From: an uncultured Eubacteriales bacterium
GTDB lineage: Bacteria > Bacillota > Clostridia > Oscillospirales > CAG-272
Direction of reading: 5' to 3'
Assembly (NCBI GenBank): GCA_949747515.1
Contig: CATKFO010000051.1
Span: 4,226 to 68,225, forward strand
Length of the DNA stretch: 64,000 nt
Positions 50,538-59,890 of the stretch are shown here, piece by piece. The notes under the pieces are model-generated. The model saw only the letters and a program-made list of their open reading frames with translations. It was not told where the DNA came from and did no database searches. The number at the start of each line of letters is the position of its first letter. Within the stretch, counting starts at the first letter, position 1. The translations under genes and the position numbers were made by a program.

Positions 50538-50840
50538 TTATATGATTAAGGCCTCTACAATCAGGGCCGCAAGACAACAAGCGACGGCGACTTTTAAAAG
50601 TCCAGCTCCCCTCGCGGCAAGGACGATACCGATAACGAGAGCCGCGGTTCCCGCCCACGGAGTACGCGTAGCTTCAATAATAGCAGGGACGGTCATTACA
50701 GATAACGTCGCGTACGGCACGTAATACAGAAAAGATCTGACCGTGCGGTTTTTGATTTCTCCTCGTATTAGTATAAGAGGAAGAATTCTCACCGCGTAGG
50801 TCGCCGCCGCCATAACGAGTATGTATATCCATGGATTCAT
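50538..50840 (-). CDS. azlD: AzlD family protein
   Basis: MAAATYAVRILP...FLYYVPYA; follows azlC. Confidence 0.85.
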   Translation of the reverse strand: MNPWIYILVMAAATYAVRILPLILIRGEIKNRTVRSFLYYVPYATLSVMTVPAIIEATRTPWAGTAALVIGIVLAARGAGLLKVAVACCLAALIVEALII

Positions 50841-50892
50841 ATATACGGCCCTGCCTTTCTGCGTTTTCTGCGAAATTTATTTTTATATGCTT

Positions 50893-51606
50893 TCAGTCTT
50901 CATCCCATACTTCCGGCACGGGTTTGATTATTGCGGCTGCAAGAGATATCGCGACAGTCAGAACTATAGTTACGATACCGGGCGAAATCTTAGCTAATAC
51001 GGGAACGAACCGAGCGACCGAGCTCAGTGCGAAAGACGCGGCTACTACGGCCGCTACCGCGCGCCTTTTAATCGCCGGAGGAACGACGATTGCGAGAAAC
51101 ATTCCGAAAAGGCCGACCGAAAGCGCGCTTACTGCGAACTCAGGTAAAAGATTCCCTGCGAGAGCGCCGATAAAAGTTCCTATAGCCCATCCAGGGATCG
51201 TCGGAAGCATCGTTCCGTAAGCGTAAGCAGGTTCAAGATATCCGTCCCGCGAAACGTTAACGGCAAATATCTCGTCCGTCAGATCAAAGCCGACGAGCAA
51301 CCTGTGAAAAAACGGAGAATTCGGGGCGAATTTCTGACTTAGCGTACAGGACATGAGCAAATATCGAGCGTTCGCTACAATTTCCATCAGCGCCGCCTCG
51401 GCATATCCCGCCCCGGCCGCGTAAAGCGAGAAAGCGGCATACTCTCCTGCGGAAGCGTTACACAACAAACTTGCCGTCGCCGCCTGCGCGGCTGAAAATC
51501 CAGCTTCGCCCGCCGCGATGCCGAGCGCAAACGCAACCGCAAAATAGCCGAGACCAATTGGAATCCCGTCCCGTATTCCCTTTCCGAAAAGAATCGTTTT
51601 GCTCAT
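50893..51606 (-). CDS. azlC: AzlC family branched-chain amino acid exporter
   Basis: PIGLGY, ASAGEY, NARYLLMS, LTDEIFA. Confidence 0.9.
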   Translation of the reverse strand: MSKTILFGKGIRDGIPIGLGYFAVAFALGIAAGEAGFSAAQAATASLLCNASAGEYAAFSLYAAGAGYAEAALMEIVANARYLLMSCTLSQKFAPNSPFFHRLLVGFDLTDEIFAVNVSRDGYLEPAYAYGTMLPTIPGWAIGTFIGALAGNLLPEFAVSALSVGLFGMFLAIVVPPAIKRRAVAAVVAASFALSSVARFVPVLAKISPGIVTIVLTVAISLAAAIIKPVPEVWDED

Positions 51607-51831: not shown

Positions 51832-51948
51832 CGGCAGTTCGTAACCATCCTGCCGCGAAAGGCCGCGGCTTTTCGAAATCAAAACTAAGGAGATAAAGAG
51901 CGAGGCGTAAGCCCCGCCGCGTCCTTATGCGGTTAAGGACGTTTTTTT
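51832..51948 (+). ncRNA. preQ1-I riboswitch with terminator expression platform
   Basis: P1 CGGCAG-TTCGTAACCATC-CTGCCG, A-rich tail AAAACTAA(GG), then terminator GCGTCCTTA-tgcggt-TAAGGACGT-T run; precedes queuosine salvage genes. Confidence 0.85.
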
Positions 51949-51953
51949 GTTTT

Positions 51954-52649
51954 ATGGAACGATACTGTAAAATCCTTGAAAAAAGGAAAAGAGAAATCGT
52001 CCTTCTTCGAGGGACGGGATGCGCTTACAAGAGGTGCGCGTTTTGCGACTATTACGACGACGGGCGCGAGGATGGAGAGGCTAATTTTGCCCTAAATCGC
52101 GCTGTGCTGGAGAAGGTTACCGGAGAATTTGGAGAGCTGGAGGTAATAAACAGCGGTTCCGTATTCGAGCTTGACTCCGGTACCTTACGGCTAATCCGAG
52201 AAATATGCCGTGAAAAAAGCGTTTCCACGGTACATTTTGAATCCCACTATATTTATCGTCAAAAAATACCTCGGCTCCGGGCGGAATTTTCCGGAATCGA
52301 CTTGAAAATGAAACTGGGTCTTGAAACCTTTGATTTTGATTTTCGTGAAAACACGCTCAAAAAGGGAATTTCAGAGTATTCTCCAGAAGAGATCGCACGA
52401 AACTTCAACGAAGCTAATTTTTTGTTCGGACTTACAGGACAGACGTTGTCGTCTATGAAACGGGATATCGATTTGGGACTGCGCTTCTTCGAACGAATTT
52501 GCATTAATATAATGTGTGAAAATTCCACGGATCTAAAGCCGGACAAAGATGTGATCGAAGTCTTTATGAAAGGTATATATCCGGCAATAAAATACGACGA
52601 TAGAGCGGATATATTGCTTAACAACACAGATTTCGGCGTCGGAGACTAA
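51954..52649 (+). CDS. queL: radical SAM queuine lyase-like protein
   Basis: MERY..REIVLLRG.GCAYKRCAFCDY (CX4CX2C), LEVINSGS, FESH, GLETFD; preQ1 riboswitch and yhhQ context; start moved to ATG 51954. Confidence 0.75.
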   Translation: MERYCKILEKRKREIVLLRGTGCAYKRCAFCDYYDDGREDGEANFALNRAVLEKVTGEFGELEVINSGSVFELDSGTLRLIREICREKSVSTVHFESHYIYRQKIPRLRAEFSGIDLKMKLGLETFDFDFRENTLKKGISEYSPEEIARNFNEANFLFGLTGQTLSSMKRDIDLGLRFFERICINIMCENSTDLKPDKDVIEVFMKGIYPAIKYDDRADILLNNTDFGVGD

Positions 52650-52684: not shown

Positions 52685-53401
52685 ATGACAAACGAGCTTT
52701 TACTTATCGGTTCGGTTATATTTATATTTTCTTCGGCTCTTTTGGCTTATAAGTTTTTCGGCAGGACGGGACTTTACTGTGTTTCTGCCGTCGCTACTAT
52801 TCTTGCAAACGTGGAAGTTTTGATTCTTGTCCGCGCCTTCGGCATGGAGCAGACGCTTGGGAACGTACTATTCGCCGTTACGTTTCTCATCACGGACATT
52901 CTGTCGGAATGCGAAGGAAAAAAATATGCTAACAGGGCGGTGTTCGTAGGAATATTTTCGTCGGTGTTCTTTCTCTTTCTTTCGCAAAGCTGGCTTTTAT
53001 ATACTCCGTCGGACGCCGACTGGGCCATGAGCTCGATATCGGCTATATTTTCAAACACGCCGAGGATGCTTTTGTCGTCGCTGGCCGTTTATTCGGTCAG
53101 CCAAATATTCGACGTTTGGCTATACCACAAGTGGTGGAAATTTACCGAGCGCAGATTCGGAGATAAAAGACGGTTTTTATGGCTGAGAAACAACGGATCT
53201 ACTTTGGTAAGCCAGATATTAAACACTCTTTTATTTACAATCCTTGCATTCTGGGGAGTTTACGACGTCCCGACAATCGTTTCAATATTTGCGTCGAGCT
53301 ATGTTATTTATATTTTTACATCTCTGCTCGACACGCCTGCGGTTTATATTGCAAGAAAAATAAGCGACGGTAAGAAAGCTGCGGATTGTTCCGCTCGATA
53401 A
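52685..53401 (+). CDS. yhhQ: queuosine precursor transporter (YhhQ/DUF165)
   Basis: TLGN..FLITDILSE, SQIFDV, WLRNNGSTLVSQ, LDTP. Confidence 0.9.
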   Translation: MTNELLLIGSVIFIFSSALLAYKFFGRTGLYCVSAVATILANVEVLILVRAFGMEQTLGNVLFAVTFLITDILSECEGKKYANRAVFVGIFSSVFFLFLSQSWLLYTPSDADWAMSSISAIFSNTPRMLLSSLAVYSVSQIFDVWLYHKWWKFTERRFGDKRRFLWLRNNGSTLVSQILNTLLFTILAFWGVYDVPTIVSIFASSYVIYIFTSLLDTPAVYIARKISDGKKAADCSAR

Positions 53402-53527
53402 TATGCTTGGCGTTTGCAGCCGCGAATGTTTGGGACTGCGTCTGGCGTTCGTCTGACTTCCCGCGAAAGAAAATATCGATTCTCTAATAAGATTTTTGAG
53501 AAAAAAGACTTGTCGTCATAATTTTTT

Positions 53528-53652
53528 CGCGAGGCTTTGTTTCGTTAAGCTTCAAACGAAGCGTAGTTGAATCCCGCTTCGTTAGTGTTTTGAAGTAAAA
53601 CTTTCCTACAGATATGCATGCTTGCGCTTCTCAAAATGAAGAGCTTGCGCCG
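53528..53652 (-). repeat. dispersed intergenic repeat, copy 2 (inverted)
   Basis: Reverse complement aligns with 45719-45838 with a few substitutions and indels. Confidence 0.8.
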
Positions 53653-54044
53653 ATCTACGCCTTAACTTTTGTTTAAACCTGAAAAAAAGACAGTCGTTTA
53701 TATGTCGTTCGGCGCGGGCGAGAGAACATACGACTTAGCGCGAGGCGTTATAATCGCTTAAAACGTCAAAACTTTGAATAGATATTTCCTCATAAACAAA
53801 ACCACAATAGAAAAATTCCTCCTATGGCGTCAAAAATAAGCTGACAAAGGAGGAATTTTATGGTTAGTAAAATACAAATGCTGCTTTGTACGAAAATATG
53901 AAAAAGAGTCTAAGAAAGAGTTGCCATGCAGAAAAGAAACCTATGGTAATTCAAATCTCATATATATGAGCGCATATGCGTCTACAGCGACAGTTTATAC
54001 AACTAAAAATAAAACTAAACGCCGTCCGCCCTATTTGAAACGAT

Positions 54045-55160
54045 TCAATAATCCCCGTTTTGCTTTTCTGAAACCAGCATCGTTTTAATATTGTTTCCGG
54101 AGAGGGCGTCCTCGAACGCAAGATTGATCTCGTCTATTGTATAACGCGCGCCCAGCCGCAGTATCTTTTCGTGCAGATCCCGGCGCTCGCTCAAAAATTC
54201 GAGATAAAGACGAACGTCTATCATTGAATACTGCGAAGAACCTATTATATGAAGGGCCTTAAACGTGATCGTCTGCGGCTGTATCCGCACGGCGCCGCTA
54301 TTGCTGTACTGGCCGGGAATCAGATATACTCCGCGATTTCTCAAAATGTCCATTCCCTGAGGAACTGCTGAAACGGCTCCGGACGCTTCAAAGCACAAAT
54401 CTACTCCAAGACCTCCGTTTTCGCAGAGCAAACGCTCGGTCACAGATTCGGCTCCCATTTTCGTAAGGTTGAATACGTCGTCGGCTCCAAGCTCACGCGC
54501 GAGCGCCTCTCTCTTATCGTTGCTTCCGGCGGTAATAGCGTATACTGATTCAATTCCTATCGCCTTAAGATACATTACGGCAAAGCACCCTACGGGGCCA
54601 AGACCCTGCACGACGGCGACCTTTTTTTCGCTTAACTTTACTCCAGCCTGCTCGGCGAGCCTGAACGAATGAACGGCGGTGGGGCCGGGGCATGCGAACG
54701 TGGCGACCATTACAGGATCAAGATCTTCGGGAATTTTTATTAAATTTGTCAGCGGAGTATAGTTTACTTCGACGTATCCTCCGTACAAATACGGCGCAGT
54801 TTCTATACTTCCGCCGTTAGTTACCGCCATATTAACGCAGTTAGCGTCGTCGCCGGTTTTGCATAGAAGACATTCTCCGCATGGAACCGCTATGTCGGCG
54901 ATAACGTTGTCTCCGATTTTAAGTCCATACGCCGCCGCCTCGTCTTCGTCGCAGTCTTCAAGCCTTCCCACAAACTCGTGCCCTATAATTGTCGGAGGCT
55001 CGACGTCCAATTTTCCATTATGAAAATGAACGTCCGTTCCGCAGATTCCGCTGGCGATCAGACTTGAACGTCCGTATCCCGCCGGCGTTTCCGTTATATT
55101 GAATTCACGCACTTCAAAAGGGGCGTGCGCTCCCATAAATACGGCTGCTTTAGCTTTCAT
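54045..55160 (-). CDS. zinc-dependent alcohol dehydrogenase (MDR family)
   Basis: GICGTD, GHE, CGECLLC...C, GLGPVG. Confidence 0.92.
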   Translation of the reverse strand: MKAKAAVFMGAHAPFEVREFNITETPAGYGRSSLIASGICGTDVHFHNGKLDVEPPTIIGHEFVGRLEDCDEDEAAAYGLKIGDNVIADIAVPCGECLLCKTGDDANCVNMAVTNGGSIETAPYLYGGYVEVNYTPLTNLIKIPEDLDPVMVATFACPGPTAVHSFRLAEQAGVKLSEKKVAVVQGLGPVGCFAVMYLKAIGIESVYAITAGSNDKREALARELGADDVFNLTKMGAESVTERLLCENGGLGVDLCFEASGAVSAVPQGMDILRNRGVYLIPGQYSNSGAVRIQPQTITFKALHIIGSSQYSMIDVRLYLEFLSERRDLHEKILRLGARYTIDEINLAFEDALSGNNIKTMLVSEKQNGDY

Positions 55161-55187
55161 TATTTTATCTCCTTTATATCGGTAGTT

Positions 55188-55973
55188 TTATCTCTCGACC
55201 GTTACCGAAAAATTTTCGTTGAAAATAGACTTTATCTCTTCGATACGTTTTTCGGATAACGGTTCCGTATCGCGAAAAGCGTACGTCGATTCCATAGCGT
55301 CGTACTTGCTTGATGCCATTCGATGAAAAGGAAGCAAATCCACGGTTTTCACGCCTATGCTGGCAAGTAATTTCTCGCTCTTTTTCAGTGAATCGTCGTC
55401 TGAGTTTACCCCGGGTATCAGCGGTATTCGGACATGGACGTCCGCGAGAGACGATACAAGCCTTTTTAAATTGCCGATTATCAGATGAAAGTCCCCTCCC
55501 ACTGTCTCTGCGCAAACCCTTTCGTCCGGAGTTTTTAAGTCGTAAAAAAAGCAGTTCGCATAGGGCAGGACCTCCTCGAAATTCTCCCACGGCACGCCTC
55601 CCGCCGTATCGATCAGGGTATGAATTCCAAGCTCGCGAAGTCGTTTGCAAAGCTCCGCTACTTCGCGCGCCTGAAGCATAGGCTCGCCTCCGCTTATTGT
55701 AATTCCCCCTCCGCTGGAGCTATAGAAGTCAGCGTCCTGCATAACGGCTTCGATAATCTCGTCTATCTTCATACGGATCCCGTAAGAAACAGTCTTGCCG
55801 CTTCCGGCGTATACAAGCGTCTGAGGATACGGCGACACAGTTTCTGGGTTGTGGCACCATGGACATCGCAGATTACAGCCTTTAAGAAAAATCGTGCTTC
55901 TTATCCCCGGGCCGTCCCCGGTTGAAAAAAACTGGATATTGGAAACGTTAAGCTCAGTCATACTCGACTCCAT
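55188..55973 (-). CDS. glycyl-radical enzyme activating protein (radical SAM)
   Basis: DGPGIR..FLKGCNLRCPWCHNPE, SGGEP, LLPFH; no ferredoxin insert. Confidence 0.93.
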   Translation of the reverse strand: MESSMTELNVSNIQFFSTGDGPGIRSTIFLKGCNLRCPWCHNPETVSPYPQTLVYAGSGKTVSYGIRMKIDEIIEAVMQDADFYSSSGGGITISGGEPMLQAREVAELCKRLRELGIHTLIDTAGGVPWENFEEVLPYANCFFYDLKTPDERVCAETVGGDFHLIIGNLKRLVSSLADVHVRIPLIPGVNSDDDSLKKSEKLLASIGVKTVDLLPFHRMASSKYDAMESTYAFRDTEPLSEKRIEEIKSIFNENFSVTVER

Positions 55974-56009
55974 AATTTACGTTGAGTTCGCCGCTTTTCG
56001 GGCATATCT

Positions 56010-58145
56010 TTATTCCTGCTGAGTCCGGCTCAGTATATCCTCCTGAACAGCCCTCTCAAGCGTTACGTAATAAGCGGAAAATCCGGAAACGCGCACTACG
56101 AGATCGGAATATTTCTCCGGATGATCCATGGCGTCTTTAAGCGTCTCGCGTGAAGTGGCGTTGATCTGCATCTCCTGCCCTCCTCTTGCAAAGTACGTTC
56201 GGATAAGCGACGCGAGCTTTTCCCTCTTTCCGTCCGCGAACATACCGGGCGAGAACTTTTGATTCAAAACGGTACCGCACGCCACCTGACCGTAATCTGG
56301 TTTTGTCACGCTTAATACGGTCGACGTAGGCCCGCGCGTATCCCGTCCGTAGGTCGGCGACGCGGCGTCGGACAACGGTTCTCCCGCAAGGCGTCCGTCG
56401 GGAGTCGCGCCGATTTCTCGTCCGGCTGAAATATTATTGGTGTTCGCAGCCATAGCGATGTAAAAATATCCTCCGTCCGGAGTTCGGTATTTCTTAAATT
56501 CTTTTGATAGAAAATCTACGTACCACACGGCGTATTTATCCACGAAATCGTCGTTGTTTCCATACTTGGGCGCGCGGAGCAGAGTTTCTCTCAGCTTTTC
56601 GTATCCTTTAAAATTTGCGAGCATAGCGTCTCTAAGCTCTGCGAGAGTCGCCGTACCGTCTGCGAAGACAGTCTTCTCAATAGCCGCGAGAGAATCGCAA
56701 ACCGTTCCGACTCCCATTACGGCGGCTCCGTGAACCGAACGATACTTGCTTCCTCCCATGTTAACGTCGAGCCCCTTTTCAATACAGCCGTCGCAGAAGC
56801 ATGAGAGAAACGGAGTAGTAAGTTCCTCCGGACGCTCCTTTTTATTATGGGCGCAGAATCGTTCTACATATTTGCGCGCCCCGTCGGCGATCTGTTTTTC
56901 AAACTTTTTCATCAGATCGTCCATGGACGAAATATCGGAAACGTCGCCGGAGTCTATTCCCTCGCTTTTGCCGTCGTAAGAGACTCCGCCGTTAAAAAGA
57001 TACTCGAAATACCTCGGCGTGTCGAAACGTCCGTCGCTCCACGGCGGCTGTTTTCCCGTTATAAAGTTTTCAATACAGCCTACCATGGAATAGTTGTATA
57101 TATCCGCTTCTTCATAACATCCGTAACGGCGGAGAGCCTCTATGTTTACCTCGTCGTTCATAAGAGCGGGATATCCGATACCTGTGCCGATAACCTTAAG
57201 ACATGCGTCGAGAAATTCGTCCGGAGAACTTTGAGATATTCTCGCGGAAAGATTTGGGCCCGGAGTAGCGCAGCTCTTAACCGCTTCAAGAACAAGATAG
57301 CTTAGCTCGTTAACGTCGCTTGATCCGTCAGGCTTACTCCCTCCGACGCATATGTTTACTACGTCGTCGGCCCCTCCGTATGCTCTGTGCTCGTAGATCT
57401 TCATAAAGACGTTTTCAAGAAGTTCTTCCGCGAATTCCTCAGTCATTACGCCGTTATCTATATCGCGCCTGAAAAAAGGATACATATACTGATCTATTCT
57501 CCCGAGAGCCATGGCGTATCTTCCTTCTATGCAGTAGCAGGTGTGAATCATCCATACAAGCTGAAGAGCCTGAGCAAAGGTTTCGGGAATTCCCAGCGCC
57601 GCCCTACGGCAGTTTGAAGCTATCCAGTTAAGTCTGCCGCCGTCGTAGCCCTCGCGACCCACAAGTTCCTCGCAGCGATCAGAGTATTTAAGCAGTCTCG
57701 CGCGAAGACCCGAAAGCGCGGTCTCCATTGCCCCGAGGTATCTCAGTCGGTCTTCCTCTCCAGCATGAGCAGCTTTAGACGCTTCAATTCGAGAGAGCAT
57801 GCCGGGCAGTCCTTCGCTGAGGACCGCTCCATAATCGGTTGAATAATGATCCGCGTTTGACCCAAAGCCTCTCTCAATATATTTACCCGAAATTTCGGAA
57901 GAACGCCGCCTGGTTTCCTCGTCTATATCCGTCATTACGTCGCGTATACTGCCGACGATATAATCGTTTTTAAAAATATGAGGAACGGGCCTTTCAAACA
58001 ACGTATATATAGCGTCCGCTCTTTGTCGGGCGTTATCTTCGCTGGTCGAGGAGAAGTAGCCCAAAGCTCTGAAATAATCGGATTGCCATGAGCCGACGAA
58101 CTTTTCACTGATCTCCCTCTTTAAATATTCGGTAGATTTTTTCAT
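56010..58145 (-). CDS. glycyl radical enzyme (PFL-like family), substrate unknown
   Basis: LGRIDQY, Cys loop VGCIE, ATPDGR, Gly loop VRVSGFS; start set at ATG 58145 (711 aa). Confidence 0.92.
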   Translation of the reverse strand: MKKSTEYLKREISEKFVGSWQSDYFRALGYFSSTSEDNARQRADAIYTLFERPVPHIFKNDYIVGSIRDVMTDIDEETRRRSSEISGKYIERGFGSNADHYSTDYGAVLSEGLPGMLSRIEASKAAHAGEEDRLRYLGAMETALSGLRARLLKYSDRCEELVGREGYDGGRLNWIASNCRRAALGIPETFAQALQLVWMIHTCYCIEGRYAMALGRIDQYMYPFFRRDIDNGVMTEEFAEELLENVFMKIYEHRAYGGADDVVNICVGGSKPDGSSDVNELSYLVLEAVKSCATPGPNLSARISQSSPDEFLDACLKVIGTGIGYPALMNDEVNIEALRRYGCYEEADIYNYSMVGCIENFITGKQPPWSDGRFDTPRYFEYLFNGGVSYDGKSEGIDSGDVSDISSMDDLMKKFEKQIADGARKYVERFCAHNKKERPEELTTPFLSCFCDGCIEKGLDVNMGGSKYRSVHGAAVMGVGTVCDSLAAIEKTVFADGTATLAELRDAMLANFKGYEKLRETLLRAPKYGNNDDFVDKYAVWYVDFLSKEFKKYRTPDGGYFYIAMAANTNNISAGREIGATPDGRLAGEPLSDAASPTYGRDTRGPTSTVLSVTKPDYGQVACGTVLNQKFSPGMFADGKREKLASLIRTYFARGGQEMQINATSRETLKDAMDHPEKYSDLVVRVSGFSAYYVTLERAVQEDILSRTQQE

Positions 58146-58239
58146 AATAACAATGCCTTTCTTCACTTTTGGCGCGTCGTCGTATGTCTGCATTATATCC
58201 TCTATAATTTTGTTTTGCAATAGACTATTCTAATTTATC

Positions 58240-58268
58240 TTGACAAAACTAAGGTAAATTATTATAAT
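58240..58268 (+). promoter_or_regulatory. consensus sigma-A promoter for the AraC gene
   Basis: TTGACA-17bp-TATAAT. Confidence 0.75.
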
Positions 58269-58315
58269 AAATAACCGAGATACGGCGAAAAAACTTAATA
58301 TATCGAGGACAAAAT

Positions 58316-59113
58316 ATGGATTATCTTAAGATAGCCTCGCTGCCCGAGGTAAAATTCGCTCATACTTTCGACGCGGAAAAGTACGACAACTACTTTCCCA
58401 AACGCTGCGGAACGGCGGAAATCTCATATTTGAAGGAAGGAGAGCTGCGCGTTGTCAGCGGAGGCGTTCAAACCGTCGCTCGCGCCGGAGATATTCTATG
58501 CACGCTGTTTCGGTCGGATATAGAATTTCACGCTTCAAGATATCATTGTCATCACACGGTCAGCGCTTCCGCGAATTTTATATTCTGCTCCGCTCCGGAG
58601 GAAGATTCCGTTTTTCTTTCGCAGATTATAAGTTCTCCCAATCACGGAAGATTTGAAGAGCTTATAGACAAGCTGATATACGCGAAAAGAATATCTCCGG
58701 AGCGTAAGCTGAAGTGTTCCGGATTGTTTTTGCAGCTTATAGACGAATTAAGCGAGGAATGTAAGAAAAACGAGAGAGAAAAAGACGTCGGAGGATATTC
58801 ATATGTAGGAAAGGCTAAAAAATATATCTACGACAATATCGAACGGCGCGTGTCTCAAAAAGAAATCGCCGCTCATCTTGGAATTACGCCCGAATATTTG
58901 TGCTCCGTCTTCAAAAAATATACCGGAGATTCAGTGATAAAATTTATTAACAGCCGAAAACTTGAAAACATATGCGTCATTATGAAAAAGGAAAACGTTC
59001 CGCTCTACCGCGCCGCGGAAATGTATGGGTTTAACGATCCTAATTACGTCAGCCGCCTTTATCGGAAATACTACGGAGTCAACATAACGGACGACTCGAA
59101 AAAAGTAACATGA
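58316..59113 (+). CDS. AraC family transcriptional regulator
   Basis: Cupin-like N-terminus; IAAHLGITPEYLCSVFKK and AEMYGFNDPNYVSRLYRKYYG double HTH; divergent from the GRE operon. Confidence 0.92.
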   Translation: MDYLKIASLPEVKFAHTFDAEKYDNYFPKRCGTAEISYLKEGELRVVSGGVQTVARAGDILCTLFRSDIEFHASRYHCHHTVSASANFIFCSAPEEDSVFLSQIISSPNHGRFEELIDKLIYAKRISPERKLKCSGLFLQLIDELSEECKKNEREKDVGGYSYVGKAKKYIYDNIERRVSQKEIAAHLGITPEYLCSVFKKYTGDSVIKFINSRKLENICVIMKKENVPLYRAAEMYGFNDPNYVSRLYRKYYGVNITDDSKKVT

Positions 59114-59329
59114 TAAATTGACGGCAATTTTTAAAGCATAAATAAGCATAGCTAATATTTTCTACACAAATTAACGTTGAATTTTTTCATTCTTTTTGTT
59201 ATAATTCGATGTGGACGCGTTTGGAAAGCTGTAAAGGGGATAAAAAATCCGCCGAACATAATTTGAAACGCTAGTCCTATAAAGCTTAACTTATAAAATA
59301 TAAACGAACGAAAGTCGGTGTTAAAAATA

Positions 59330-59890
59330 ATGAAGCTTCTTGACACAATAGAAGAATCCTCGAAAAAAGCCGCGGAAGAGATTATTTCAGTCGGACGATT
59401 GAAGGCCGGGGACGTTCTGGTAGTAGGCTGTTCCACCAGCGAAATCTCAGGGGGAATCATCGGCCGCGCTTCGTCTCCGGAAATTGCGGAAGCCGTGTAT
59501 AAAGGCGTCTCCGAAGCGGCCGATAAAGCGGGAGTATACGTCGCCGCTCAATGCTGCGAGCACCTGAACCGCGCTATAATCATAGAGCGAGAAGCCGCTT
59601 CCCGTATGCCGTCCGCTTCTATAGTAAACGTTCTTCCACAGCCTAAAGCGGGGGGCTCCTTCGCATCAGCCGCTTATAGGGCGATGAAGGATCCCGTAGC
59701 CCTTGAGGAAATCGCCGCCGACGCGGGACTCGATATAGGAAATACTCTCATAGGAATGCATCTGAAGCGCGTAGCCGTTCCAGTGAGGCTGGAAATCAAA
59801 AAGATCGGAGACGCGGCGGCGACGGCGGCGAGAGTCCGTCCTAAGTTTATCGGCGGTTCCAGGGCGGTTTACGACGATAATTTAATGTAA
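59330..59890 (+). CDS. TIGR01440/DUF436 (YwlG-like) protein
   Basis: VVGCSTSEI, QCCEHLNRA, PKAGGS, GLDIGNTLIGMHLK, RPKFIGG. Confidence 0.9.
   Translation: MKLLDTIEESSKKAAEEIISVGRLKAGDVLVVGCSTSEISGGIIGRASSPEIAEAVYKGVSEAADKAGVYVAAQCCEHLNRAIIIEREAASRMPSASIVNVLPQPKAGGSFASAAYRAMKDPVALEEIAADAGLDIGNTLIGMHLKRVAVPVRLEIKKIGDAAATAARVRPKFIGGSRAVYDDNLM

Follow-up and report, generated by a model that had tools for sequence, protein, structure and literature searches.

Control of gut metabolites of relevance to the host has repeatedly been traced to glycyl radical eliminases; examples are trimethylamine, hydrogen sulfide precursors, hydroxyproline and anhydro-sugars. Glycyl radical enzymes (GREs) with a Cys-x-Glu loop constitute the CXE class of 1,2-eliminases and isomerases, as defined in sections 5.6-5.7 of a June 2026 review (PMC13450708), where glycerol dehydratase (GD), 1,2-propanediol dehydratase (PD), HpfG, HypD, HpyG, HpzG, CutC, IslA/IseG, HpsG, HplG, YbiW and PflD are given as characterised eliminases and isomerases, and section 7 describes whole GRE clades as still lacking an assigned function. 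The four-gene cassette described here is built around a short GRE of this class and is located in a 64,000-nucleotide stretch of DNA from an uncultured Eubacteriales bacterium (assembly GCA_949747515.1, contig CATKFO010000051.1, positions 4,226 to 68,225), referred to below as the window.

The cassette occupies window positions 54045-59113 and encodes an AraC-family regulator, the short GRE, a radical S-adenosylmethionine (SAM) activase and an alcohol dehydrogenase (ADH); all four genes are intact and real. The short GRE is an uncharacterised family inside a well-known enzyme class and a well-known operon logic. With a confidence somewhat short of even, the cassette is read as an AraC-controlled diol dehydratase plus reductase module, which would deoxygenate a polar substrate and serve as an inducible electron sink.

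A four-gene cassette around a short glycyl radical enzyme

The three enzyme genes lie tightly spaced on the minus strand (window 54045-58145) and the AraC gene is divergent, giving the following features.

54045..55160, minus strand: Zn-dependent medium-chain dehydrogenase/reductase (MDR), here called the ADH, 371 amino acids, PF08240 and PF00107
55188..55973, minus strand: GRE-activating radical SAM enzyme, 261 amino acids, CX3CX2C motif, without a ferredoxin-like insert
56010..58145, minus strand: short GRE, 711 amino acids, PF02901 and PF01228; catalytic residues by alignment to known GREs (711-residue numbering) Cys357-x-Glu359, radical Gly688, His100 and Asp371
58192..58220, minus strand: promoter-like site of the GRE operon, TTGCAA-17-TATAAT, a consensus match only
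58240..58268, plus strand: promoter-like site upstream of araC, perfect TTGACA-17-TATAAT, a consensus match only
58316..59113, plus strand: AraC-family regulator, 265 amino acids, PF12833/PF00165, with an HTH_18 domain at the C-terminus and a cupin-like sensor domain at the N-terminus

The original prediction, made from the letters of this DNA, had described a short 711-residue GRE with a single-Cys loop, an activase without a ferredoxin insert, a Zn-dependent ADH and a divergent AraC regulator, and each of these was recovered: the loop reads SMVGCIENF, the activase has neither a second Cys cluster motif nor a Fer4 Pfam match, and the expected Pfam domains are found in the ADH and in the plus-strand regulator. 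Besides the ATG at 58145, which gives the 711-residue GRE, in-frame upstream starts exist at 58193 (727 residues) and 58220 (TTG, 736 residues). The start at 58145 has a GAAAGG ribosome-binding site and is favoured since the -10 hexamer of the minus-strand promoter-like site overlaps the ATG at 58193; the resulting length also fits the homologues, which have 707-713 residues. An Rfam scan of 53300-59400 returned no riboswitch and no other RNA family at E values up to 1.

The arrangement is not a matter of chance, as dozens of other genomes have the genes in the same order. A pattern scan over one genome per prokaryotic species returned 356 stretches, 344 of which encode a GRE relative, and neighbourhoods were counted in the best 80 of these 344, with GREs 54-79% identical to the window GRE. 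The 80 loci stem almost exclusively from uncultured Clostridia of the rumen, caecum and faeces, together with one Lentisphaeria metagenome-assembled genome (MAG). Clustering of open reading frames (ORFs) and counting by tblastn gave the conserved order AraC(-) GRE(+) activase(+) ADH(+). Where the flank was 900 bp or longer, 57 of 69 loci had an activase at most 3 kb downstream of the GRE; where it was 2.2 kb or longer, 47 of 66 had an ADH downstream (45% identity or more). An AraC gene was upstream at 34/65, and at nine loci the ADH came immediately after the GRE, the two not being separated by an activase. No microcompartment, aldehyde dehydrogenase, kinase, phosphotransferase system (PTS) or transporter gene was conserved with the cassette in the fetched loci.

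In a large protein database, more than 120 clusters of 707-764 residues share 58-100% identity with the GRE, nearly all of them unnamed or 'hypothetical' proteins from Clostridia MAGs. The family was present in 20 genomes of a 400-genome sample of the class, concentrated in two bacterial families (6/9 and 5/7 sampled genomes), and among the other genomes sampled from the order of the window organism none was found to carry it; its distribution is therefore patchy. Several studies of mouse-gut metagenomes contain the same DNA. In one study, contigs of two metatranscriptome runs match portions of the ADH, activase and GRE genes with 95-99% identity, which is weak evidence of transcription, compatible with expression of the cassette but no proof of it; none of these RNA-library contigs covers araC, so they have no bearing on its expression.

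On its domains and motifs, the GRE is a member of the pyruvate formate-lyase (PFL)-like superfamily: it matches PF02901 (1.6e-124) and PF01228 (1.7e-30), it carries the glycine motif VVRVSGFSAYY, whose Gly688 is kept in 68 of 68 full-length family members, and a CX3CX2C activase is encoded alongside it. The loop MVGC357-I-E359, with Cys and Glu likewise in all 68 members, assigns it to the CXE class. It stands apart from all characterised GREs in the comparison and scores below every NCBIfam equivalog cut-off, neither clustering with a characterised GRE nor having an identical active site, and the proposal of an uncharacterised GRE thus held. The identities tried and rejected were CutC (TIGR04394, 375.1 against a cut-off of 1050), HypD (NF043068, 370.2 against 1100, none of five ligands kept), HpfG (NF048009, 334.6 against 1000, separate clade), HpsG (NCBIfam score 326 against 1000), a YbiW/PflD-type isomerase (NF007437, 309.5 against 1109), pyruvate formate-lyase (TIGR01255, 135.1 against 994.2, with a single Cys in place of Cys-Cys) and DhaB1 (TIGR01774, a subfamily model, 443.1 against 678.2, with Ser282, Tyr339 and Tyr640 replaced by A211, V262 and A566).

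A Foldseek search with an AlphaFold2 model of the GRE (predicted local distance difference test 86, predicted template-modelling score 0.89) gave as best matches the propanediol dehydratases 9RCP/5I2G, glycerol dehydratase 1R8W and CutC, all with template-modelling (TM) scores of 0.87-0.88 and 27-29% identity, and HypD, HplG, YbiW and PflD were 26-27% identical. The nearest sequences in a library of 50%-identity representatives are 47-50% identical and 713-722 residues long, followed by other short GREs at 37-43% and by GREs of normal length at 33-38%. A maximum-likelihood tree of 61 rows was built from a random draw of 15 out of the 68 full-length members of the family, 21 + 22 representatives, three paralogues from the source genome, two HypD orthologues, two HpfG-type and two PD-like sequences; authentic GD and CutC sequences were left out of it, and the PD-like rows are unnamed sequences with PD-like motifs. 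The family was monophyletic with an SH-like approximate likelihood ratio test (SH-aLRT) value of 100 and fell inside a 29-row clade (support 100) consisting almost entirely of GREs of 690-726 residues, and the HypD, HpfG and PD-like sequences were on the opposite side of the tree. The literature covered, namely titles and abstracts together with sections 5.6, 5.7 and 7 of PMC13450708 and exclusive of supplements, holds no characterised member of the short-GRE family.

The partner proteins are conserved as well. The activase, with the Cys motif CNLRCPWC (CX3CX2C) and no further Cys cluster motif, passes the cut-off of TIGR02494 (244.9 bits against 174.35) in an alignment of two stretches which skips approximately 36 profile positions of the ferredoxin-like insert, and its orthologues have a median length of 256 residues; judged by these motifs, it is of the minimal, PFL-activase-like kind across the family. 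The activase of a paralogous GRE in the source genome, in contrast, has 308 residues with a Fer4 domain. The ADH orthologues are better conserved than the GRE, with a median identity of 70% to the window ADH (n=36), and at least 90% of the 36 keep the motifs GxCGTD, GHE, FACPGPT and PCGxCxxCxxGxxxxC (more fully PCGxCxxCxxGDDANC). The first three are taken to be the catalytic motifs with the Zn ligands, and the four Cys residues of the last presumably form the structural zinc site. The window ADH has no acidic residue after the second Rossmann-fold strand (…AITAGSNDKRE…), which, as far as such motifs are a guide, may hint at NADPH use.

The curated models that the ADH matches best describe threonine, idonate and scyllo-inosose dehydrogenases, with scores far under the cut-off of each, and the top one, L-threonine 3-dehydrogenase, was rejected at 126.6 against 458.35 (TIGR00692). 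The best PDB match, 1VJ0 (4.5e-37), is deposited only as 'alcohol dehydrogenase, zinc-containing', and a protein atlas search led to generic 'alcohol dehydrogenase' clusters only. For the AraC sensor domain, no informative relative was obtained, as the PDB matches cover the helix-turn-helix domain only and the EutQ cupin model missed its cut-off (20.7 bits against 21).

The source genome (2.34 Mb) additionally contains at least five PFL-like GRE genes, 29-32% identical to the studied GRE, on the following stretches.

L089:230-2434, minus strand: paralogous GRE gene
L090:9346-11601, plus strand: paralogous GRE gene
L090:11813-12520, plus strand: paralogous GRE gene, cut by the contig end
L091:1760-3103, minus strand: paralogous GRE gene, partial
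L091:1-678, minus strand: paralogous GRE gene, partial
L092:2254-4284, plus strand: paralogous GRE gene

None of the paralogues reaches any NCBIfam cut-off or is a canonical PFL; the one on contig C70 has Cys-x-Asp instead of Cys-x-Glu. Their neighbours are housekeeping genes, and tblastn found only three activases in the genome (contigs C51, C38 and C70).

Catalytic residues, predicted pocket and proposed chemistry

In glycerol dehydratase, Glu435 deprotonates the C1 hydroxyl of the substrate and His164 protonates the leaving C2 hydroxyl (PMC13450708, section 5.6.1). A HMMER alignment to 1R8W maps GD His164, Cys433, Glu435 and Asp447 to H100, C357, E359 and D371 of the short GRE, each of which is present in 68/68 full-length family members. 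H100 and D371 thereby supply the equivalents of His164 and Asp447 by which acyclic vicinal-diol dehydratases are recognised, and the His together with the aspartate of a Trp-x-Asp motif is common to GD, an HpfG orthologue, a PD-like sequence and the short GRE; the Asp371 position is Thr in HypD and, by alignment count, in CutC too. In the reference alignment used, HypD orthologues scored above 1400 bits and reproduced all thirteen literature residues, the HpfG orthologue scored 1121 bits, and two unnamed sequences were taken as PD-like from their motifs. Eliminase chemistry is supported, since the Cys-x-Glu pair and the His164 and Asp447 equivalents are conserved.

In the favoured reading, the minimal activase would generate the glycyl radical at Gly688 of the GRE, from where it would move to Cys357, and Cys357 would abstract a hydrogen from the carbinol carbon of a vicinal diol. 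Glu359 would deprotonate the hydroxyl of that carbinol, and His100, backed by Asp371, would protonate the neighbouring hydroxyl, to be lost as water. The Zn-MDR dehydrogenase of the cassette would then use NAD(P)H to reduce the carbonyl product, an aldehyde or ketone, and the net exchange of one OH for H would consume reducing equivalents and act as a fermentative electron sink, following the same logic as the conversions of glycerol to 1,3-propanediol and of 2,3-dihydroxypropanesulfonate (DHPS) to 3-hydroxypropanesulfonate. The substrate would be not glycerol or 1,2-propanediol but probably a larger polar diol, perhaps an anionic one, for example a sugar, a sugar acid, a polyol or a hydroxy-acid derivative. 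In some lineages a cytoplasmic esterase encoded with the cassette may free this diol from an O-acetylated precursor. The original prediction of a dehydratase or lyase with an ADH acting on its carbonyl product stands with regard to eliminase chemistry and to the ADH as a conserved partner; the hydroxyl leaving group, the place of the ADH after the GRE, the electron-sink role and the substrate class are what we infer.

The pocket residues differ from those of the described enzymes. GD Ser282, Tyr339, Asp447 and Tyr640 are taken here to be the substrate-contacting residues of O'Brien et al. 2004. In the short GRE, GD His281/Ser282 become Tyr210/Ala211, Tyr339 becomes Val262, following Asp260-Asp261, and Tyr640 becomes Ala566. 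Asn568 (68/68) occupies the position of HypD Thr645, which corresponds to GD residue 642, presumably a Ser. Arg373 (67/68) is found where HpfG, PD-like sequences and HypD (Tyr450) have an aromatic residue, as does CutC (Tyr506) by a hand count, and HypD Asp339 becomes Asp261, which, like Arg209, is present in 68/68. Altogether, Arg209, Asp261, Asn360, Gln366, Trp369, Arg373, Asn568 and Asn571 are each kept in 67-68 of the 68 members, and the paralogous GREs of the source genome differ at exactly these positions. In HypD, Ser334, Tyr450 and Thr645 hold the substrate carboxylate and Asp339 contacts the amine through water (PMC7077986); the corresponding residues in the short GRE are a variable Tyr/Phe, Arg373, Asn568 and Asp261. 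The predicted pocket accordingly reads as larger, strongly polar and possibly anion-binding, with which the proposal of a polyol or sugar derivative as the substrate is compatible.

A bolder version of the dehydratase reading, to which a low probability is given, makes the short GRE the first dehydratase of the glycyl radical type to act on an anionic polyhydroxy compound, carboxylated or otherwise charged, that comes from plants or from the host. Examples would be a sugar acid derived from aldonic or uronic acids, the glycerol side chain of a sialic-acid-type compound, and quinate/shikimate. The acid group would then be anchored by Arg209, Arg373 and Asn568, and the GRE and Zn-ADH together would perform a ribonucleotide-reductase-like net deoxygenation (CHOH to CH2) of a metabolite.

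Several observations weigh against a diol dehydratase plus reductase. Cys-x-Glu also occurs in C-N and C-S lyases and in isomerases (PMC13450708), and the leaving group is thus not fixed by the motif alone. The N-terminal alignment around His100 was ambiguous in one MAFFT run, although HMMER and a larger MAFFT alignment agree with each other on this residue. Asp261 and Arg373 could merely form a salt bridge with each other. The absence of a transporter conserved with the cassette is awkward for an anionic substrate. Finally, the closest homologue (79%, locus L001) and several other loci have no ADH beside the activase, so the ADH is not obligatory.

The shared motif opens two further routes. 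Improbably, the GRE could be a lyase like CutC/IslA, cleaving a C-N, C-S or C-P bond of a 2-substituted alcohol, e.g., an amino alcohol. The ADH would then either supply this alcohol by reducing an aldehyde, the part that sulfoacetaldehyde reductase plays for IslA, or reduce the released aldehyde. Cys-x-Glu is common to CutC, IslA and HpsG (PMC13450708), CutC is the best PDB sequence match (1.5e-108), and acidic residues are numerous in the active site (D99, E207, D260/D261, E359 and D371), among them the Asp261 that aligns with the HypD residue in water-mediated contact with the substrate amine (PMC7077986). The His164 and Asp447 equivalents, however, are of the diol dehydratase type, the latter being replaced by Thr in HypD and, by alignment count, in CutC; the CutC model score stays at 375 against a cut-off of 1050, and no Arg/Gln/Arg sulfonate triad like that of IslA/IseG/HpsG was identified, the mapping via the HpfG orthologue being unreliable.

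Still more doubtful is an isomerase of the YbiW/PflD/HplG type, which would open a cyclic ether or amine (e.g., an anhydro-sugar) to a keto compound for subsequent reduction by the ADH. Isomerases also keep Cys-x-Glu (PMC13450708), the polar Arg/Asn/Asp pocket seems to resemble a sugar-binding site, the best curated matches of the ADH are secondary-alcohol/polyol dehydrogenases, though all far below cut-offs, and carbohydrate esterases and glycoside-hydrolase-like genes recur beside the cassette. Yet the isomerase model NF007437 gives only 309 against 1109, YbiW and PflD are no closer in the fold search than the eliminases (26-27% identity), and no kinase or PTS gene for a sugar phosphate is conserved.

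Neighbouring genes and leads to the substrate

A gene for an SASA/CE6-like esterase (PF03629), with an N-terminal GQSNM motif and no signal peptide, stands beside the cassette in 20 of the 80 loci, usually right after the ADH and in four loci directly after the activase, the normal place of the ADH. Its nearest structures are 2APJ and 1ZMB, and it is predicted to be a cytoplasmic carbohydrate O-acetylesterase. The loci are L058 (10868-11656, plus strand), L007, L017, L018, L025, L029, L031, L032, L037, L038, L045-L047, L062, L064, L066, L068, L072, L075 and L002; a search of the source genome found no such esterase.

The second lead concerns deoxyhexoses. L-rhamnose isomerase (RhaA) is encoded in 19 of the 20 family-positive genomes of the class sample as against 143/379 others, and the control marker AraA in 0/20 as against 56/379. 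The RhaA co-occurrence is weak evidence, because the positive genomes belong to families in which RhaA is near-universal (8/9 in family f19 and 7/7 in f21). At a single one of the 80 loci (L027:4150-6938, plus strand), genes for rhamnulokinase and L-rhamnose isomerase (rhaB-rhaA) lie directly upstream of the AraC/GRE cassette. This adjacency is possibly incidental, as rhaBA adjoins mutS2 there just as it does in the source genome, where the mutS2-rhaB-rhaA synteny (L101:8208-13566) occurs without the cassette. The source genome also encodes rhaB-rhaA (RhaA 668 bits against a cut-off of 572), fucI, a RhaEW-sized class II aldolase and at least three Fe-dependent ADHs (Fe-ADHs) that could serve as FucO. 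A search of it for B12-dependent diol dehydratase returned no match, and the control also matched nowhere.

Such genes would suit an isofunctional, microcompartment-free 1,2-propanediol (or glycerol) dehydratase linked to rhamnose or fucose, an unlikely alternative but one with a concrete route. L-Lactaldehyde, whose fates are described in PMC3870299, would be reduced to (S)-1,2-propanediol, which the GRE would convert to propanal, to be reduced to propanol, with the Zn-ADH acting as lactaldehyde reductase, propanal reductase or both. The propanediol dehydratases are the best fold matches, the His/Glu/Asp/Cys set is as in glycerol dehydratase and the PD-like sequence, the source genome combines the rha and fuc genes with the lack of a microcompartment shell gene, and small neutral diols need no dedicated transporter, to which the RhaA counts and the position of the cassette in L027 can be added. 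The Phe/Val positions of the PD-like sequence, presumed to form the methyl pocket, are nevertheless V262, N568 and R373 here, and A566 replaces a conserved Tyr, which predicts a larger and polar cavity. The RhaA association is confounded by phylogeny, the L027 adjacency may follow from mutS2 synteny, and any of the Fe-ADHs could take the FucO role. The rha leads thus favour this alternative and the polar pocket disfavours it. Taken together, the substrate leads point weakly and loosely to pectin/deoxyhexose metabolism and to O-acetylated carbohydrates, and to no single compound.

Of the earlier statements on gene absence, that on microcompartments holds for the whole source genome (94% complete), in which no bacterial microcompartment (BMC) shell gene was found. 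The absence of transporter genes needs qualification, as Vut_1 (52685-53401) and AzlCD (50538-51606) genes are located nearby, although neither is conserved with the cassette. Apart from the esterase, the neighbours at other loci are lineage-specific (GH32/43-like, BNR-like, GNAT, AAC(3), DUF4474, an ABC exporter, NrdD and others) and were rejected as pathway members, and the ORF clusters c4, c6, c19 and c20 turned out to be shadow ORFs running antisense to the ADH, the GRE and other genes.

Further observations concern the surroundings of the cassette and of its homologues. The 644 bp that separate the end of the ADH gene from the convergent Vut_1 gene (53402-54044) contain no ORF of 60 or more residues, no Rfam match and no esterase remnant, and an RNA-library contig of a related strain spans them with several small indels. 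A 240-residue ORF at window 51927-52649 (plus strand) with a Cys-x5-Cys-x2-Cys stretch (…GCAYKRCAFCDYY…) has no Pfam match at E 1e-5 and may encode an unusual radical-SAM-like protein. The closest homologue of the GRE is flanked by genes for a pectinesterase (PF01095; L001:5593-6648, minus strand) and a 770-residue AraC-type regulator (L001:6910-9222, plus strand). Two family GREs in tandem followed by one activase are found at L059:5837-10118 (plus strand), and one sampled genome (G118) has two copies of the family GRE on different contigs.

With 344 relatives in the one-genome-per-species scan, the short-GRE family is common and widespread, and the cassette is experimentally convenient, being small and self-contained, with no microcompartment genes, a minimal activase and an ADH of its own that could act as coupling enzyme when substrates are screened. 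Once its substrate is identified, gut fermentation would gain a new reaction and biocatalysis a compact GRE/activase pair. An anionic substrate, if confirmed, would mean a new electron sink for gut Clostridia and could explain the origin of deoxy or dehydroxylated plant acids in herbivore guts.

Comparison with characterised glycyl radical systems

Choline trimethylamine-lyase CutC resembles the short GRE in its Cys-x-Glu loop and its fold and is its best PDB sequence match, but the two share only 27-28% identity, Tyr506 is replaced by Arg373, and the short GRE has no associated microcompartment. The trans-4-hydroxy-L-proline dehydratase HypD (6VXC) likewise shares Cys-x-Glu, the equivalent of His160 and, as Asp261, the essential Asp339. 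Its Asp278, Ser334, Phe340, Tyr450 and Thr645 are, in contrast, Tyr210, a variable Tyr/Phe, Val262, Arg373 and Asn568 in the short GRE, and it has Thr in place of Asp371.

HpfG/HpfH with HpfD, that is, DHPS dehydratase with 3-sulfopropionaldehyde reductase, offers a precedent for the proposed electron sink, as the reduced product of the HpfG and HpfD reactions, 3-hydroxypropanesulfonate, is excreted in this role (PMC12890257). HpfG has the His and Asp equivalents of the short GRE, but it lies on the opposite side of the tree and its pocket residues differ.

The 1,2-propanediol dehydratases (Roseburia inulinivorans 5I2G; 9RCO/9RCP) are the best structural matches (E 1e-46, TM 0.87, 29% identity); the HMMER match line to 9RCO and the unnamed PD-like sequence show that the His, Cys-x-Glu and Trp-x-Asp motifs are shared. 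Known enzymes of this type have about 790-840 residues compared with 711 here, and the characterised GRM3 and GRM5 propanediol dehydratases are microcompartment-associated (PMC5311937), whereas a search of the source genome gave no BMC gene; in the short GRE, polar residues take the place of the presumed methyl pocket.

The glycerol system DhaB1/DhaB2/DhaT of Clostridium butyricum (1R8W) differs from the cassette in the details of all three proteins. DhaB1 is 28% identical to the short GRE, which is approximately 75 residues shorter, mostly at the N-terminus (His100 compared with His164), and in which the invariant Arg209, Asp261, Arg373 and Asn568 are new. The activase here, unlike DhaB2, has no ferredoxin insert, and the reductase is a Zn-MDR instead of the Fe-ADH that DhaT represents. 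The dha genes run in the order GRE, activase and reductase, and the two systems have in common the fold (TM 0.87), the Cys-x-Glu loop, the His164/Asp447 equivalents and the operon logic of a GRE with its activase and a reductase for the aldehyde product. Set beside these systems, the cassette is an enzyme-discovery and engineering lead, compact and with a minimal activase, rather than a new kind of system.

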